A DNA stretch of 64,000 nt from Solobacterium sp. Its GTDB lineage: Bacteria; Bacillota_I; Bacilli_A; Erysipelotrichales; Erysipelotrichaceae. Shown piece by piece: positions 19,915-30,035 of the stretch. The notes beneath the pieces are model-generated. The model was not told the origin of the DNA and did not search any database. It saw only the letters and a program-made list of their open reading frames with translations. Location: positions 1,779 to 65,778 of the forward strand of contig JAFYHC010000016.1 of NCBI GenBank assembly GCA_017539385.1, given 5' to 3'. Every line of letters starts with the position of its first letter. Positions within the stretch are counted from its first letter, which is position 1. The translations under genes were made by a program, and so were the position numbers.

Positions 19915-22893
19915 ATGGCACAGCATTACAAGGCATTTATCAGCTACCGGCATGTACCGGCAGATATCACAGCTGCGAAAGAAGTACAGAAGCAGCTGGA
20001 ACATTTTCATATTCCTTCATCGATCCGGAAAGCATATGGGATACAGGAGATCGGAAAACTGTTCCGGGATCAGGATGAACTGTCCATTACCAGTGATATC
20101 TCAGAGAATATTACGGAGGCACTGCACAACAGTGAGAAGCTGATTGTTATCTGTTCGAAAGATACTGCGTCTTCCCGCTGGGTGGCACGGGAAATCAGTG
20201 AATTCATGAAGACACATTCCCTGCAGGATATCCTGACAGTATTGGTCAATGGGGAACCGGGAGAAGTCATTCCGCAGGTGCTGCTGGAAGAGCGTGTTGC
20301 GAGCATTGATGCGGATGGCAGGGAATGCACAGAAGTGCGTCCCAGAGAACCGCTGTCCTGCGATCTGCGCAAAGGGAAAAAAGAAGGACGCAGTATGGAA
20401 ATACCGCGTCTTGCGGCGGCACTGATCGGGTGTTCGTACGATGAACTGGTGCAGCGGCAGAAACAGTACAAAACACGCAGACTGACGGCGTGGACCACTG
20501 CCATATCCATCCTGACGACATCCGGTGCCGGGTATATGACATATTCCCGCAGCCAGGTACAGAACAGTCTCTGGGAAGCACAGATCCGTGAATCCATGTA
20601 TCTTGCCTCCGAAGCAAAAGACCTGCTCGACAGCCATGACAATATCACCGCTGCCCAATTAATCCTGGAAGCACTGCCGTCCGTGGACAATAAGCGTCCC
20701 CTGGTACCGCAGGCACTCGGTGTACTGACAAAAGCAGTCAGTGCGTACAAGGCACCGTCTGCGGATTATATCAACGATGGCAAATATACGATGAATGCGA
20801 TCACTGCATCCTTCAGCGTGAACGATGACGGTACGTATCTTGCCATCCGTGATGAAGAAAATGAACTGGCAGTGTATGATCTGCGCACAGATTCCCGCGT
20901 GACGTGCAATTGCCTCGATCGTGTATACAATGCAGTCTTTACCGATGAAGATCATCTGATGGTCAATGATTATGACAAAGTACAGATGTATGACATCTCC
21001 GATGAAAGCGTGATCTGGGAATATGAAGACAGTGCCATGTATTCCTCTATGGATTACGTATGTGCCGGTGATTCCCATATCATCCTGCTGGATCATACAA
21101 CATTTACCGTACTGGACAGTCATACCGGGGAACTGTTATTGCAGAAGGAACGGGAGGCCGACAGCATGCATCTGACTGCCTCGGATGCCAATACATGCTT
21201 CTCTGCTGATGACCGCTATTTCCGCACCATTCGTAATAGATACGAAGAAGAAACCAATGTCATCGTGCAGTTTGATACAGAGACCGGTGAAATGCTGGAA
21301 GGGGAAACCATGTGCAATGATTATTCGGTCCTGACTGCTACGGAAAACGGCACGGCGCTGGCTGGTACGATTGCCTCCATGCCGGGACAGATGAATGATA
21401 CGCTCCGGGTGGAAATCTATGATCAGGCTATGAAACAGACCGGTACATACGAAGAAGCAATTGGTCCCAACCATTCGGTCAAGGATATCCGCATGATCCC
21501 ATATCCGGTCCGTGAAGATACCATACAGAATGTACTGGCTGTGATCTATGACAACCGTGAGATCCTTTTAGATCCTGTCACCGGTGCGTTCATCCGCCAG
21601 ATCATCTTCCAGGAAACGATCGCTGTACCGTTTCTGAGTGTCACAGAGAAATCCCAGCTGCATCTCAACAGCCATGGCCAGCATGCCGGCTTCATGTATG
21701 AGGATAACTGGACGGTCTTTGGAAACAGGCAGTTCCCGGAAAATATCCGCTCTGCCAAACTTGTCCGCATGGATGAAGGCAGACAATGCTATTTCATACA
21801 GGAAGGAGACAGCCGCTCCATACAGCGCTATACCCAGGGTGTTTACGATACCGGAATGGAAGACCTTGGTGCACCGGATGAAACCACAGCATCGTATATT
21901 GATACCGGGGAAACGATCGAAGACAGCTATGTATATATAGCCCACAATGATTCAAAACTGTATGTATGCCGCATCCATGACGGTGTGCATACGGGCACCT
22001 CGGTCCCAGAGCGCATCAGTTCCATGCGCCGCATGGGAAAATGGCATGGGAATATCCTGTACAGTGTGTATCTGATGGATCAGGGAAAGAATGATATCCT
22101 CTCCGTAACACCGGACGGACAGGCGCAATTGCTTGGAGTGGAAGGCAAAGGGGAGTATGTCGTCGCTGCGGATACACTGTATGAAGTCAATACGGACGGC
22201 CTGTCCCGGATCGATCCGGAAACCATGCAGAAAGAGAACATCGTATCTGGGTATATGTATTTCAGGAAACAGGATCCGGACAGTGACCGCATCCTGGTAT
22301 CGACCATGCATGGCAGTGCCGTCGTGGAACTGAAGAGCGGAGAGATGACGGAATTTGAAATTACTTCAGATGCGGATATAGCTGACTTTAGTGATGACGG
22401 GCATGTCTTCATGATTCAGGATAATGTATATACCGATCTGATCGACGGCACCAGTGTGCAATTGCCGGTCAGTGATTCCTGTGCCGCATACAGGCACGGG
22501 GATGATCTGTATCTATTGGCAACGGATGGAACACTGACCGTCGTGGATGTCCATGATGGTCATACGAAGCAGAAAACCATCCTGTCGGGGAATGGCAGCA
22601 ATTCTCAATGGCAGGTCTATGGCGATACATTGTATATCCATAACGGCTATATGCTGTACATGGTGGATCTTTCGACCTGCTATGAATATGCGGCGGTAAG
22701 AAACTGCATCAGCTATGATCCTGTCAAAGGCGAAGTCTATGTCGAATATTCGGACCAGAGCACCACGGAGACACGCAGCCGGATCGGCCGCTTCCACTTC
22801 TACACACTTCCGGAACTGCTGGAAAAAGGCTATGCGTATACACGCGGGGAAAGACTGGAAGAACCGCTTCGCCTGCGCTATGGACTGAAATAG
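19915..22893 (+). CDS. TIR-domain protein with a TM segment and a large C-terminal WD40-like beta-propeller region
   Basis: AFISYRH, LFRDQDEL, LIVICS...SRWVAREI (TIR); hydrophobic segment near aa 190-210; beta-strand repeats such as FSVNDDGTYLAI, CFSADDRYF. Confidence 0.8.
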   Translation: MAQHYKAFISYRHVPADITAAKEVQKQLEHFHIPSSIRKAYGIQEIGKLFRDQDELSITSDISENITEALHNSEKLIVICSKDTASSRWVAREISEFMKTHSLQDILTVLVNGEPGEVIPQVLLEERVASIDADGRECTEVRPREPLSCDLRKGKKEGRSMEIPRLAAALIGCSYDELVQRQKQYKTRRLTAWTTAISILTTSGAGYMTYSRSQVQNSLWEAQIRESMYLASEAKDLLDSHDNITAAQLILEALPSVDNKRPLVPQALGVLTKAVSAYKAPSADYINDGKYTMNAITASFSVNDDGTYLAIRDEENELAVYDLRTDSRVTCNCLDRVYNAVFTDEDHLMVNDYDKVQMYDISDESVIWEYEDSAMYSSMDYVCAGDSHIILLDHTTFTVLDSHTGELLLQKEREADSMHLTASDANTCFSADDRYFRTIRNRYEEETNVIVQFDTETGEMLEGETMCNDYSVLTATENGTALAGTIASMPGQMNDTLRVEIYDQAMKQTGTYEEAIGPNHSVKDIRMIPYPVREDTIQNVLAVIYDNREILLDPVTGAFIRQIIFQETIAVPFLSVTEKSQLHLNSHGQHAGFMYEDNWTVFGNRQFPENIRSAKLVRMDEGRQCYFIQEGDSRSIQRYTQGVYDTGMEDLGAPDETTASYIDTGETIEDSYVYIAHNDSKLYVCRIHDGVHTGTSVPERISSMRRMGKWHGNILYSVYLMDQGKNDILSVTPDGQAQLLGVEGKGEYVVAADTLYEVNTDGLSRIDPETMQKENIVSGYMYFRKQDPDSDRILVSTMHGSAVVELKSGEMTEFEITSDADIADFSDDGHVFMIQDNVYTDLIDGTSVQLPVSDSCAAYRHGDDLYLLATDGTLTVVDVHDGHTKQKTILSGNGSNSQWQVYGDTLYIHNGYMLYMVDLSTCYEYAAVRNCISYDPVKGEVYVEYSDQSTTETRSRIGRFHFYTLPELLEKGYAYTRGERLEEPLRLRYGLK

Positions 22894-24808: not shown

Positions 24809-24904
24809 GGTAAATGCAATTGGCAATTGACAAAGTGAAATGTCTGCTTGGTGGCATATGCGGCTGTGAAGGGATATGATTTGGTTGCCAGGAGGGAACA
24901 TACG

Positions 24905-26047
24905 ATGACGTTAGGAGAGAGAATTGCACATCTGCGAAAAGAACACGGCTGGTCGCAGGAAGATCTTGGCAGCCGCATCGGTGTATCCCGTCAGGCAGTC
25001 AGCCGCTGGGAATCCGATCAGGCAGTACCGGAGACGGAAAAGATCATCGAATTATCCCGTCTGTTTGAAGTCAGTGCCGGCTCTCTGCTTGGCACAGAAG
25101 ATATTGTAAAGAATACAAAACCGGTACAGGAACCGGTTCGTAAGAAAGTATGGATGCCAATTGCCGCAGGTATCGCAGCAGCAGCGCTTCTGTGCACGGT
25201 GATCGTGAACCAGAACCGCCAGATCAACGAACTGCATGACAGTCTGAATGGATTACAGGGCATGTATGGCACACTCAGTTATCAGATGGACCAGATGCGT
25301 TCCGATCTGACCAGTATTCTGGATGAAAAACTGACCGATACCGTATTTGCGGAATATGCACTGAAGGTGGATTCCATCGACAGAGAAGCCGGTACATATC
25401 GTGTGCGCCTTGATGGTGTACTGCGCAGTCCTTCCGATGCAGTGCGCTATTTTGCCAAAGACAGCAAAGATGCCATCTATAACGGAGAGATCACAGTAAC
25501 CGATGCACAGAACGGCAGTGTGACAGGAACGATCGATGTGCCATTGGAAGAAGGCATGCGCTTCTATGCCGGTACTGCGGAAGAAGCATCGCATCTGAGT
25601 ACACATGGTCTGGACTTATATTCCTTTACCGTTTTAAATACTGGTCTTTCCGGATATGGCTATCAGGACAGATCGGGAAACAATAAGAAACAGTTCTATC
25701 TCGAATTCACCGTGTTCATTCCATATGTCTTTGATGAAACGGATACACCTGGCAAAATACAGGGCACGGTACAGATGATCCGTGATGGCAAAATCATACA
25801 GGAGTGTGAACTGACAGAAAGACCCCAGGACAGTCAGAGTCATAATCAGAAATTCCTGGAAACTGTCTTTACCCGGACGGAACCCATGGAAGATCCGGAA
25901 GAATATCTGATCTATGCGGATATCACCGATGAATACGGCAGACAGTTTCAGGGATATGTATCCCTGCTGCATTTTGAATACAAAGCCGTCACCGGCTTCT
26001 TCATCAATATCCCGGTCAATCCCAGAACCGGTGAGAAGATCCAGTAA
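24905..26047 (+). CDS. XRE HTH, TM, coiled coil and extracellular domain protein
   Basis: LRKEHGWSQEDLGSRIGVSRQAVSRWE; TM WMPIAAGIAAAALLCTVIV; RBS AGGAGG. Confidence 0.8.
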   Translation: MTLGERIAHLRKEHGWSQEDLGSRIGVSRQAVSRWESDQAVPETEKIIELSRLFEVSAGSLLGTEDIVKNTKPVQEPVRKKVWMPIAAGIAAAALLCTVIVNQNRQINELHDSLNGLQGMYGTLSYQMDQMRSDLTSILDEKLTDTVFAEYALKVDSIDREAGTYRVRLDGVLRSPSDAVRYFAKDSKDAIYNGEITVTDAQNGSVTGTIDVPLEEGMRFYAGTAEEASHLSTHGLDLYSFTVLNTGLSGYGYQDRSGNNKKQFYLEFTVFIPYVFDETDTPGKIQGTVQMIRDGKIIQECELTERPQDSQSHNQKFLETVFTRTEPMEDPEEYLIYADITDEYGRQFQGYVSLLHFEYKAVTGFFINIPVNPRTGEKIQ

Positions 26048-27507: not shown

Positions 27508-27519
27508 AACATACCGCAA

Positions 27520-27754
27520 TGAAGTGAACCCCCAAAGTTTGGACCAACCAATAAGGAGGTTCACTTTTAATATGAAGTATATAAAAGAGTATAAACTGGA
27601 ATGCATTCGGAAGCGACAAGCGGGAGAGTATATTGAACTGCCACCTGAGTTTAAGAAGCGGAGATCCTTTATGAATAACAGGACCGGGGAGTATGAAACA
27701 ATTGCAGAGATCCTGCCGGATCTGTCCGACTATCACGAGTTCTTTGTGAATTAA
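27520..27754 (+). mobile_element. IS3-family (IS150-group) left-end remnant with truncated orfA
   Basis: TGAAGTGAACCCCCAAAGTTTGGAC resembles IS150-group terminal IRs; RBS then MKYIKEYKLECI (27572) resembles the OrfA N-terminus; no orfB or right IR. Confidence 0.65.
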
Positions 27755-27757
27755 GAA

Positions 27758-27798
27758 AACAGCTTCTGTTGCGGCTTAGCCGGTGTGCAGAAGCTGTT
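27758..27798. terminator. Hairpin between convergent genes
   Basis: AACAGCTTCTG/CAGAAGCTGTT. Confidence 0.6.
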
Positions 27799-27800
27799 GT

Positions 27801-29213
27801 TTATTTTTCCGGATGTGTGACGATGCCGCTGAATAAGAGCGATGAGTCTGCGTGTACTACCGCAAAGGCGAAGGGACGGTCAACAGTGAAATCGACGGTC
27901 TGACCGGGAATGAAATAGCCCCCTGCCATGGCAATATCGGTATATGCTGCACCGGTTACGCCTTCTTCATCAATGATGAGGCGGGCTGCGTGGTTTGCAT
28001 CACTGACAAAGATCGTTTCATCCGTGAGCGGTGAAAAGTCTGCTTCATTGGTGAATACACGCTGGATGCCCAGTTCCGGCAGAATGTCACATAGATCCAA
28101 TGTGCAGGAGATATCGAAGACCGGAAGACTGAGATTGACTTCGTCTGCGGCATTGCTTTGATGCAGAGAGGGATCCCGGAGTATTTCATAGGATACAGGA
28201 TCCTGCAGTACTTCTTCGGGTGTATGCCCTTCGTCCGGCAGATAGATGTACATTGCTCCGCCTTCCGCAAGCGGCAGACTGACGGCTGTCCATGTATCAC
28301 CGGTATACAGCGGATAGTCGAAGGTATTATGCAGGAAGGTGGTATCAATGGTTTCTTCCGGTGTATGGAAGGGCTGGGTATCTGTCAAAGTGGAATCAAA
28401 GCGCATAGCCCAGGATGCTTTGTAATAGAGAGCGGAAGCCAGTGTCAGTACCATGTCCGGCGTGAATTTTTCCTGGGATACAGAATCTTTCAGCAGACCG
28501 CCTGTTGCAGTATTGAGCCAGTCCTGAAACATGCTGGTATATGCGGGATCGGATGGATCACCGGCATAGGAGGATGCTTTGTACGTATCTGCGAGCACCT
28601 GCAATGGATCTGTGCGGAAGGTATGGGAGCCATTCAGCCACATGGAATTGAGGGCTTTGCACTGCAGGGTGGGTGTATCCGCATAACAGGCATTCCAGAT
28701 GGCATTGGCGGCAGTACGAAGCTGTTCTGTGTGATCGATGCCAAGCACCTGCAGGATCTCCTTTTGCGTATCATTGGCGGTTGTTTCTTCCAGCATGGCA
28801 AGTGCCATCCAGATATTGAGCGGAGAGACGATCCGGTTGTCATTGGAGGAACCAAGCAGAAGCGGCACAGCCTTCTCATAGAAGGAATAGAGGGGGGCGT
28901 TGACATTGCGTGATGCAGTGGACTTCTGATGGAAATCATTCCTCCATGTGCCATAGTCATCGCTGTAGATGAACTGCTCAGGTGTTTCGGCATCTGTCAT
29001 GGGTTCCGGCATCTGTGCTTCGGCGAGGATGAGCGGGGAAGTGACAGGGGAAGCAGTATTTTTCGGCAATAGCAGCACAATGGCTATGGCTGCAGCGAGC
29101 GGAAGAAGCCAGAACGAGCGGGGTATTCTCCGTTTTCTCTGGTATGTTTCACTTTCCTGAATATAACTGTCCGGAATGTCTGTGACTGCTTTATACAGAT
29201 CTTCTTTTTTCAT
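27801..29213 (-). CDS. Membrane-anchored serpin with anti-sigma-like N-terminus
   Basis: IVSPLNI shutter, ALYYKASW, hinge IDEEGVTGAA, FTVDRPFAF signature; N-terminal cytoplasmic helix plus TM (aa ~35-50). Confidence 0.88.
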   Translation of the reverse strand: MKKEDLYKAVTDIPDSYIQESETYQRKRRIPRSFWLLPLAAAIAIVLLLPKNTASPVTSPLILAEAQMPEPMTDAETPEQFIYSDDYGTWRNDFHQKSTASRNVNAPLYSFYEKAVPLLLGSSNDNRIVSPLNIWMALAMLEETTANDTQKEILQVLGIDHTEQLRTAANAIWNACYADTPTLQCKALNSMWLNGSHTFRTDPLQVLADTYKASSYAGDPSDPAYTSMFQDWLNTATGGLLKDSVSQEKFTPDMVLTLASALYYKASWAMRFDSTLTDTQPFHTPEETIDTTFLHNTFDYPLYTGDTWTAVSLPLAEGGAMYIYLPDEGHTPEEVLQDPVSYEILRDPSLHQSNAADEVNLSLPVFDISCTLDLCDILPELGIQRVFTNEADFSPLTDETIFVSDANHAARLIIDEEGVTGAAYTDIAMAGGYFIPGQTVDFTVDRPFAFAVVHADSSLLFSGIVTHPEK

Positions 29214-29770
29214 TGGATGTAATCCTCCTGTTTCAGTACATTGCGCAGATCCTGCCGCATGCGGTACAGGATCGTTTTGATATTTCCCCGGGTAATACCG
29301 GTGCGTGATGCAATTTCTTTGAGAGGTTCATTGAAGAAATAGCGGCGGACAAACAGGACGCGTTCGGTTTCTGTGCGTTCCGAAAGAAAGCGAGTGATGA
29401 CATCGGTCAGCTGGTGCAGATGCACTTCTTCTTCCACGGAAGCATCGGAAGGAATGCACTCTGCCAGTTCATCCAGAATGACGGCTGTTTCACCATTTCC
29501 GCGCTTTTTGGCATGAATGGCTTCATAGCGGTCAAAGGAAAGATTGCGGGTGATCTTCGCAAGATAGGCGCGCAGGCTGACGGGGTGAGCCGGCGGGATG
29601 GAATTCCATGTACGCACCCATGTATCATTGACGCACTCTTCCGCATCCGCATGATTTCTCAATATCTGAAATGACAGATGGCGGCAATAGCTGCCATACT
29701 GCTCTGCAGTATGCCGCAGGGCATCTTCATTCCGTTCATAATACAAAGCAATGATCTCACTGTCTTCCAT
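29210..29770 (-). CDS. ECF sigma factor
   Basis: DAEECVNDTW..W..IPP...L.AYL.KITRN, LFVRRYFFNEPLKEIA...KTILYRMR; 4-bp overlap with the serpin gene. Confidence 0.92.
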   Translation of the reverse strand: MEDSEIIALYYERNEDALRHTAEQYGSYCRHLSFQILRNHADAEECVNDTWVRTWNSIPPAHPVSLRAYLAKITRNLSFDRYEAIHAKKRGNGETAVILDELAECIPSDASVEEEVHLHQLTDVITRFLSERTETERVLFVRRYFFNEPLKEIASRTGITRGNIKTILYRMRQDLRNVLKQEDYIQ

Positions 29771-29791
29771 ATTGTCCTCTCTACTCATTAT

Positions 29792-29818
29792 GACGGGAAA
29801 ACAGCATATGCGGTTACA
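29792..29818 (-). promoter_or_regulatory. Candidate ECF-type autoregulatory promoter
   Basis: Minus strand TGTAAC-N17-CGTC, directly downstream of a terminator and about 20 nt before the ATG. Confidence 0.6.
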
Positions 29819-29845
29819 AAAAAACTGTGCCCGTACGGACACAGT
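29818..29845 (-). terminator. Terminator after the SDR remnant
   Basis: Minus strand ACTGTGTCC/GGGCACAGT followed by a T run. Confidence 0.7.
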
Positions 29846-29861
29846 CTGAGAAAGCAAATAT

Positions 29862-30035
29862 TTACGCTGTGCACCAGCCGCCGTCGACTGCGAGCTCTGC
29901 ACCGCTGATGTAGGCCGCATCATCACTGGCCAGGAAAGCAACAGCCTTGGCGATTTCCACCGGATCAACAGGTGCCGGAGAAGTCGCAAGGTTTGCCTTG
30001 AGCTTGCCATAGGCTTCCATATTCGGCATGCCCAT
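29862..30035 (-). pseudogene. C-terminal fragment of an SDR-family oxidoreductase
   Basis: Translates as MGMPNMEAYG...PVEIAKAVAFLASDDAAYISGAELAVDGGWCTA*, the classic SDR C-terminus; Rossmann fold and YxxxK absent. Confidence 0.85.

Follow-up and report, generated by a model that had tools for sequence, protein, structure and literature searches.

The window, a stretch of 64,000 nucleotides from Solobacterium sp., a gut-type bacterium, carries on its reverse strand a gene for an ECF sigma factor of 186 aa with sigma2 and sigma4 domains (29210..29770 (-)), followed by a gene for a 470-aa partner (27801..29213 (-)) that is very probably an anti-sigma::serpin fusion. An earlier reading, made from the letters alone (the sequence-only reading), had described an overlap of 4 bp between the two genes, which is confirmed by the ORF coordinates and by direct inspection of the sequence, where the stop of the sigma gene and the start of the partner fall within the ATGA at 29213-29210. 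The layout that it gave to the partner (a short N-terminal tail, a basic stop, one TM helix and a complete serpin) also stands, as judged by Pfam and the residue ranges. The protein starts with MKKEDLYKAVTDIPDSYIQE, and its residues 1-26 (29136..29213 (-)) form a predicted two-helix, sigma-binding cytoplasmic tail, an assignment that rests on the model helices, the predicted interface and the repetition of the tail after paralogous sigmas. The basic run RKRRIPR (residues 26-32) and the hydrophobic stretch 33-50, a single TM helix, occupy 29064..29138 (-). They are followed by an N-terminal extension of the serpin (residues 58-103; 28905..29042 (-)), with a strand at 61-64, A-E-A at 64-66 and a long helix at 85-102, and by the complete serpin domain itself (residues 104-470; 27804..28904 (-)). 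The latter contains the hinge P17-P8, EEGVTGAAYT (residues 416-425; 27939..27968 (-)), and the exposed bait loop P7-P5', DIAMAGG-YFIPG (27903..27938 (-)), marked by low pLDDT (425-436) and by its variability.

Upstream of the sigma gene there is an ECF-type promoter, TGTAAC-N17-CGTC, which was also found as first read. Its -35 element TGTAAC (29813..29818 (-)) matches the TG(T/C)AA(G/C) kept in related loci, and its -10 element CGTC(ATAAT) (29787..29795 (-)) places CGTC at 29795-29792, 17 nt after the -35. The promoter comes directly after a terminator-like hairpin with a U-run (29822..29847 (-), read from 29847 to 29822; 11 pairs, -15.9 kcal/mol), and a similar hairpin exists in a compared locus, L001 (L-numbers denote compared loci and P-numbers proteins). 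A second hairpin (27758..27798 (-), -20.6 kcal/mol) is a candidate terminator closing the operon. Contigs of run X6 span most of both genes, with substitutions present and no indel inside the genes among the differences listed. The RNA runs X2 and X5 gave only single short contigs on the serpin gene, too sparse to show transcription. The serpin of the 470-aa gene is the sole one found in the genome to which the window belongs (G000; 2.7 Mb, 85% complete).

Remnants lie on both sides of the operon. The last ~28 codons of one, at 27510-27754, match the end of a 408-aa membrane protein of L001, where its gene comes after another ECF sigma gene that converges on the serpin gene; the window lacks this additional pair. 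An inverted repeat near 27526-27561, which resembles an IS3-family end, precedes this remnant and is present in a single copy in G000, and at 27521 one contig of run X6 parts from the window. On the other side, 29856-30035 holds the 3' remnant of a short-chain dehydrogenase-like gene, and about 1.1 kb of L001 (a TetR-like gene plus the 5' part of the dehydrogenase-like gene, all named by eye) is absent from the window. Farther away, at 19915-22893, a 992-aa protein combines an N-terminal TIR domain, a hydrophobic segment and beta-propeller repeats, and may possibly be a membrane-linked defence or signalling protein; a 781-aa protein of G000 (C65:2795-5137) opens with a TIR-like motif, by eye. 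A candidate one-component membrane sensor, with an XRE-type HTH, one hydrophobic segment and an outer domain, is encoded at 24848-26047.

The sigma factor and the tail of its partner

The 186-aa protein is an ECF (group 4) sigma factor, with sigma2 and sigma4 only and about 20 kDa. It scores above cut-off with Pfam Sigma70_r2 and r4_2 and with TIGR02937 (76.9 bits, cut-off 42.9), and it reaches 35 bits against a cut-off of 188.5 with TIGR02954, which we take to be the model of the SigV-like family. Three sigmas of its clade are encoded in G000. The partner, on its side, has the layout of a single-TM anti-sigma factor, namely a position beside an ECF gene, a cytoplasmic N-terminal domain, one TM helix and an outer domain.

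The cytoplasmic segment has 32 residues here, with model helices at 4-11 and 15-26, and 29-43 residues across 49 representatives. Its net charge over residues 1-22 is zero or negative in 47 of the 49, and at least +2 ahead of the TM helix in all of them; with its neutral or acidic front and the basic stretch before the membrane, the tail fits an N-in topology rather than a plain signal peptide. When G000 was searched with a profile of the tail, exactly three matches were obtained at E<0.1, each directly after one of the paralogous sigmas, and two of them carry unrelated, non-serpin ectodomains. The same pattern, tails after paralogous sigmas and different ectodomains, recurs in L002. The paralogous pairs of G000 lie at C65:147-1303 and C105:5107-6242; their ectodomains are short, and the pairs would serve well as controls of specificity.

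The complex of the sigma with partner residues 1-34, one of the checks that the sequence-only reading had proposed, was predicted with a score of 0.91, the best control reaching 0.02; of 157 solved complexes 116 attained that mark, as did 2 of 215 mismatched pairs, a calibration only roughly valid for the alignments used here. The runs share at least 94% of contacts, with a partner pLDDT of at least 78, and in the predicted interface residues 1-26 of the partner wrap around sigma2, the linker and sigma4. Interface positions on the sigma are not more conserved than others (0.58 vs 0.59). Recall of a solved pair by the predictor is possible in principle; even the closest sigma in the PDB, SigW, is remote (44.6 bits), and a PDB sequence search with partner residues 1-60 found nothing at E≤10.

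The prediction thus supports binding, and it does so without a sign, which would also suit a tail that stabilises or co-activates the sigma instead of inhibiting it. We find this hardly credible, as both the sigma2 and the sigma4 domain are complete, tethering to the membrane agrees with sequestration, and the predicted contacts span sigma2, linker and sigma4 like those of the short ASDII-type inhibitors (PMC8103513, in its available part). The tail does not have the size of a class I anti-sigma domain (ASDI), which is given as a four-helix domain of at least 50 aa, 101 on average, in the available part of PMC7406223; with 29-43 aa and two helices, it resembles class II domains instead by its size, its predicted contacts are compatible with that class, and it matches no PDB chain in sequence. 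Strict co-occurrence with the sigma (see below), a modular tail, the N-in topology and a confident complex prediction together give good support to the anti-sigma reading, and we consider it highly probable that the tail is an anti-sigma domain and that the partner has an anti-sigma role.

The serpin and its membrane-proximal extension

Pfam Serpin (PF00079) matches partner residues 123-468 at E 3.5e-65, over profile positions 19-370, and is the only Pfam match in the protein (P0002) at E≤0.1. The fold matches that of known serpins with Z 42.6 and rmsd 2.0 over 349 aligned residues, at pLDDT 86-90, and as modelled the partner is a member of the serpin superfamily, with a complete fold, three sheets and the conserved scaffold.

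The hinge and reactive loop, EEGVTGAAYTDIAMAGGYF, comprise residues 416-434, and the usual count from P17 would put P1-P1' at Gly432-Tyr433. Against the inhibitory consensus ExGTEAAAA for P17-P9 (PMC8233489, available part), the hinge EEGVTGAAY agrees at 5 of 9 positions and differs at P14, P13, P12 and P9. In the 49 representatives, P15 is Gly in all, P14 is Val in 44 and Cys in 5, P12 is Gly in 26 and Ala in 23, P10 is Ala in 48, P8 is Thr in 48, and P9 is Tyr or Phe family-wide; a similar pattern was seen in 112 of the 122 tailed representatives, those that could be parsed. On insertion the even-numbered hinge residues point inward, and working inhibitors such as C1-inhibitor can have Val at P14. 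As the inward positions P14, P12, P10 and P8 are small and uncharged across the family, with no charged P14, and as P14 Val has this precedent, loop insertion is likely possible, so that the hinge is likely insertion-competent rather than degenerate. The departure from the canonical hinge in the sequence-only reading is therefore real, but it belongs to the family as a whole (P14 Val, P9 Tyr/Phe) and leaves the inward positions small and uncharged. A dead serpin with a degenerate hinge was considered and ruled out, the hinge being the most conserved part of the loop.

The bait is less constrained. Between the window and its nearest relative the hinge is identical at 10 of 10 positions and the bait at 6 of 12, and bait entropy rises up to 3 bits, compared with a core median of 1.6 and a core 90th percentile of 3.0. 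The variability looked for in the loop is thus present relative to the hinge, but it is moderate, with a peak near the core 90th percentile and not beyond. From P17 to RPF there are 30-32 residues in 49 of 49 representatives, a normal bait loop length; P2-P1' are dominated by Gly, Ala, Ser and Thr, and Lys and Arg are absent from the P1 residues listed. Unusually, P1'-P2' of the window copy are Tyr-Phe, possibly an additional site of the chymotrypsin type.

A loop of this kind might also belong to a non-inhibitory serpin, working as a conformational receptor or timer that would free the sigma upon binding a ligand in the manner of hormone-binding globulins, or upon latency under heat, pH or detergent stress. 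The non-canonical hinge with its fixed aromatic P9 would suit such a role, as would a tengpin-like latch, which would permit regulated latency, and structural matches that include CBG among the best, tied with other relaxed serpins. We regard it as distinctly unlikely, because the likeness to CBG amounts to only 23-24% identity, and the bait loop is of normal length, has small P2-P1' residues and diverges faster than the hinge.

Between the membrane and the serpin, the full AlphaFold model (mean pLDDT 86) predicts a strand at 61-64 with confidence and then a long helix at 85-102, and residues A66, P69 and W90 are conserved in the extension. Superposed on native tengpin (2pee), the model gives Z 38.8 and rmsd 2.1 over 350 aligned residues, with residue 59 corresponding to tengpin 37. 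Tengpin residues 38-41 form strand s1A', which lies on helix F and holds the native state, and whose place is taken by s1A on relaxation (PMC1905895, available part). In the model, strand 61-64 thus appears to sit where the native-state latch of tengpin sits, an overlap that rests on the end-points of the ranges only. Both AlphaFold models are closest to cleaved or relaxed serpins. In the full model strand 61-64 coexists with a hinge that has become a strand as far as P9, so mutual exclusion of latch and insertion is not apparent from the models. When the serpin was folded without the extension, no latent model was obtained and the partner strand of 61-64 was not revealed.

The A-x-A at 64-66 lies about 16 residues past the TM helix here and 11-54 in relatives, and only 19 of 49 have a strict A-x-A no farther than 15 residues from the TM helix. 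If the extension works as in tengpin, cleavage would free a stalk 11-16 residues from the membrane and expose A64-E65-A66, by analogy with the 66/67 site of RsiV that is exposed by lysozyme (PMC6066255, available part). Candidate proteases for the cascade are encoded in G000: an M50 protease, three PrsW-like proteins and signal peptidase I. The same A-E-A, together with the Ala that 41 of 49 representatives share at the site of residue 66 and the existence of lipoprotein and signal-peptide forms in the clade, might instead denote an extended signal peptide, cleaved constitutively, in which case the serpin would be secreted and the sigma would simply drive its expression. This is very unlikely: the conserved acidic tail of 29-43 residues is unlike a Sec n-region, as judged from the known features of the latter, it occurs only beside the sigma clade and it is predicted to bind the sigma. 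Moreover, the signal-peptidase site of RsiV is itself shielded until the signal arrives (PMC6066255, same part).

Distribution of the module and its promoters

Homologue searching yielded 370 proteins at E≤1e-20, 120 of them listed. The nearest named relative is L001, from a MAG of Solobacterium, which has the same pair at 70%. Loci L001 and L004-L103 (L003 was left out as a duplicate of the window) provided 108 serpin rows, which fell into 55 clusters at 85%. All 16 clusters with a window-type tail (the window counted among them) have a sigma of the same ECF clade next to the serpin gene. It lies upstream and overlaps in 14, and lies downstream in two (L051 and L094), where a promoter-like site precedes the serpin; this flipped order, serpin gene first, sigma second and a promoter-like site at the head, was also seen in L098. 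A second type of tail is present in four clusters, each preceded by an ECF other than that of the window. Most of the remaining 35 are lipoproteins, and only one, L012, has an ECF in its locus, a count obtained by screening with the window sigma, which misses the second ECF type, with Pfam scans of 17 of the 35 and some short flanks. The co-occurrence that the sequence-only reading had proposed to examine therefore holds across tailed clusters, and chance adjacency of sigma and serpin is ruled out by the 16 of 16 and 4 of 4, counts that come from related, not independent, loci. A third ECF lies beside a tail::serpin fusion in L114. The TM-type serpin of L115 has a divergent N-terminus, and the 1.2 kb upstream of it contain no ECF; L109 lies at a contig end.

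Several variants accompany these forms. In L026 (433-3937), one sigma is followed by two tandem near-identical tail::serpin genes, and in L065 and L092 the serpin frame begins at or after the TM helix, with the sigma just upstream, apparent tail/TM frameshifts that are either real or assembly errors. Among P0167, P0199 and P0269 there are members of the clade with a fused Big_14 Ig-like domain and one protein that has three serpin domains. Tandem serpin lipoprotein genes occur in genomes of the window's family (L013, L014, L016, L018, L019, L022).

In even genome samples, the sigma/tail::serpin module is uncommon. Among 150 other genomes of the window's family, 38 have a serpin match and one match spans the tail; 399 other genomes of its phylum-level group gave no match at E≤1e-80; and in the class around G510 (399 genomes) 14 matched at E≤1e-70, of which four, the centre genome among them, have an ECF next to the serpin. 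A pattern scan of genome contigs returned only two loci. The window copy groups with mostly metagenomic relatives, the few named ones being Clostridia among the matches listed, and a horizontal gain of the module is plausible from these affinities. In a FastTree of the serpin core, whose labels were set by simple rules (P0010 is probably mislabelled), tailed forms are intermingled with lipoprotein forms, a pattern suggesting that the N-terminal module has been exchanged repeatedly.

Related operons share the promoter TG(T/C)AA(G/C)-N16/17-CG(T/A)(C/G) about 50 nt before the start, and similar motifs are given for ECF30 and ECF265 in the available supplement of PMC7826278, by which these two are candidate groups for the sigma in the 2021 classification. 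When G000 was scanned, as had been suggested, with a matrix from 13 hand-picked sites of other loci, the window site ranked second of 300 matches above 11 bits. In a leave-one-out test it beat 100 of 100 shuffles, and 9 of 19 loci, the window included, passed cleanly, a tenth match being a ribosome-binding site. The scan of G000 yielded no convincing second target, and the promoters of the two paralogous sigmas were absent from its top 40. We infer that the sigma drives its own operon, and its output looks mainly autoregulatory. The same promoter type was found in 7 of 13 close stand-alone lipoprotein serpins (about five independent) and in 0 of 21 distant ones, at the p=0.005 level, so this serpin clade appears to have come repeatedly under ECF-type control even when unfused. 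The lone lipoprotein genes of L028, L037, L044, L069, L070, L096 and L099 have ECF-type promoters and no adjacent sigma was found beside them.

These arrangements also bear on the main rival reading, in which the tail would be a true anti-sigma and the serpin a passenger effector, a surface inhibitor under ECF control joined to the brake, with the sigma freed by another envelope signal or by non-specific clipping of the stalk, independently of loop insertion. Stand-alone serpins with ECF-type promoters, the interleaving on the tree, the unrelated ectodomains accepted by the tail and the unfused order of L012 (ECF, anti-sigma-like gene, serpin lipoprotein) are all in its favour. Tail-less lipoprotein forms share the hinge, bait features, A-x-YP motif and extension, so that hinge, motif and extension are not specific to signalling. 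We nevertheless hold a passenger serpin to be rather unlikely, since fusion is the commonest form among close relatives (of the best 150 50%-identity representatives at E<2e-153, 122 are tailed, 16 lipoprotein-like and 12 other, as counted with a profile built from tailed proteins and thus biased towards the query), it has occurred with at least two tail/sigma types plus the third ECF of L114, and the serpin makes up the entire ectodomain, where RsiV and RsgI place their sensor.

A proposed protease switch and its relation to known systems

The sequence-only reading regarded the serpin as a bait whose cleavage by a protease triggers release of the sigma. After the analysis, this protease-sensing step stands at an even balance, and the outer serpin is likely both protease trap and sensor. 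According to the proposed mechanism, an outside protease preferring small residues, elastase- or subtilisin-like given the Gly, Ala, Ser and Thr that dominate P2-P1', would cut the exposed loop, and the cut loop would insert into sheet A. Strand 1A and helices E and F would then shift and evict the membrane-proximal strand 61-64, as in tengpin, where the corresponding shift overlaps the place of the N-terminal latch. The freed stalk with its A-x-A could be cut at site 1 by signal peptidase, PrsW or the attacking protease, followed by an intramembrane cut by an RseP/RasP-type protease, and transcription of its operon by the freed sigma would then make good the loss of spent serpin and silence the sigma again. 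The net logic would be that of an inhibitor re-ordering itself when consumed.

The closest parallel is SigV-RsiV of Bacillus subtilis, C. difficile and E. faecalis, which also combines an ECF with a single-TM anti-sigma, an ectodomain that is both receptor and inhibitor of a host enzyme, a shielded membrane-adjacent site 1 followed by RasP, and an autoregulated TGxAAC/CGTC promoter (available part of PMC6066255), the sensing, the cascade and the autoregulation in the window being proposed ones. The sensor differs, a lysozyme-binding domain in RsiV versus a serpin here, with no DUF4179 match in the window's partner, and so does the trigger, which is binding in RsiV and, as proposed here, an irreversible cut-and-refold. 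With Serpin as its only Pfam match at the threshold used, the partner is a protein that would work like RsiV yet lies outside the RsiV family. In CnrH-CnrY and EcfG-NepR (available parts of PMC8103513 and PMC7406223), the tail likewise has fewer than 50 aa, and two helices, predicted in our case, embrace the sigma surface, but the sigma clade and the sensor are others and the tail of the window is without a PDB match. SigI-RsgI of cellulolytic clostridia also has interchangeable outer sensing modules and several pairs per genome, with a SigI-type sigma and carbohydrate-binding sensors instead, and no serpin module in the available part of PMC3413522.

Among serpins, tengpin of Thermoanaerobacter tengcongensis is likewise a Firmicute protein with an N-terminal extension strand capping strand 1A and helix F; its identity is 22%, its latch holds the native state, and the available part of PMC1905895 describes no signalling role, anti-sigma tail or sigma partner. 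Corticosteroid- and thyroxine-binding globulins use the S-to-R change as a switch and not only as a trap, although as soluble hormone carriers with no membrane or transcription coupling (PMC8233489, available part). The gut bacterium Bifidobacterium breve induces a serpin on protease exposure, through a separate two-component system and with the serpin as output only (available part of PMC8012564). The logic of a protease-induced serpin has this precedent, then, and for the sigma/tail::serpin hardware none was found in the sources available: full-text literature searches for a serpin with an anti-sigma or ECF sigma, whose coverage excludes subscription journals, gave no description of the pair, and the word 'serpin' is absent from the main text and part of the supplement of the ECF re-classification PMC7826278, the remaining tables of which may bear on novelty.

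Taken as a whole, the hypothesis is that of a surface serpin acting as a transmembrane receptor, in which cut-and-refold would pull the latch strand and free the sigma, giving gut Clostridia and their relatives a protease alarm and antidote that would have arisen more than once with different sigma/tail pairs; we place it somewhat short of an even chance. The physiological role and regulation of prokaryotic serpins are largely unknown, according to the available parts of PMC8233489 and PMC6718151. In this module a serpin is coupled directly to transcription, and its two genes make a convenient reporter system for asking whether gut bacteria sense host or competitor proteases. If the hypothesis is true, serpin conformational change would have a new job, signalling across a membrane, as a parallel of RsiV for proteases, and the pair would be a natural protease biosensor with its specificity set by the bait loop, relevant to gut inflammation with raised protease activity.
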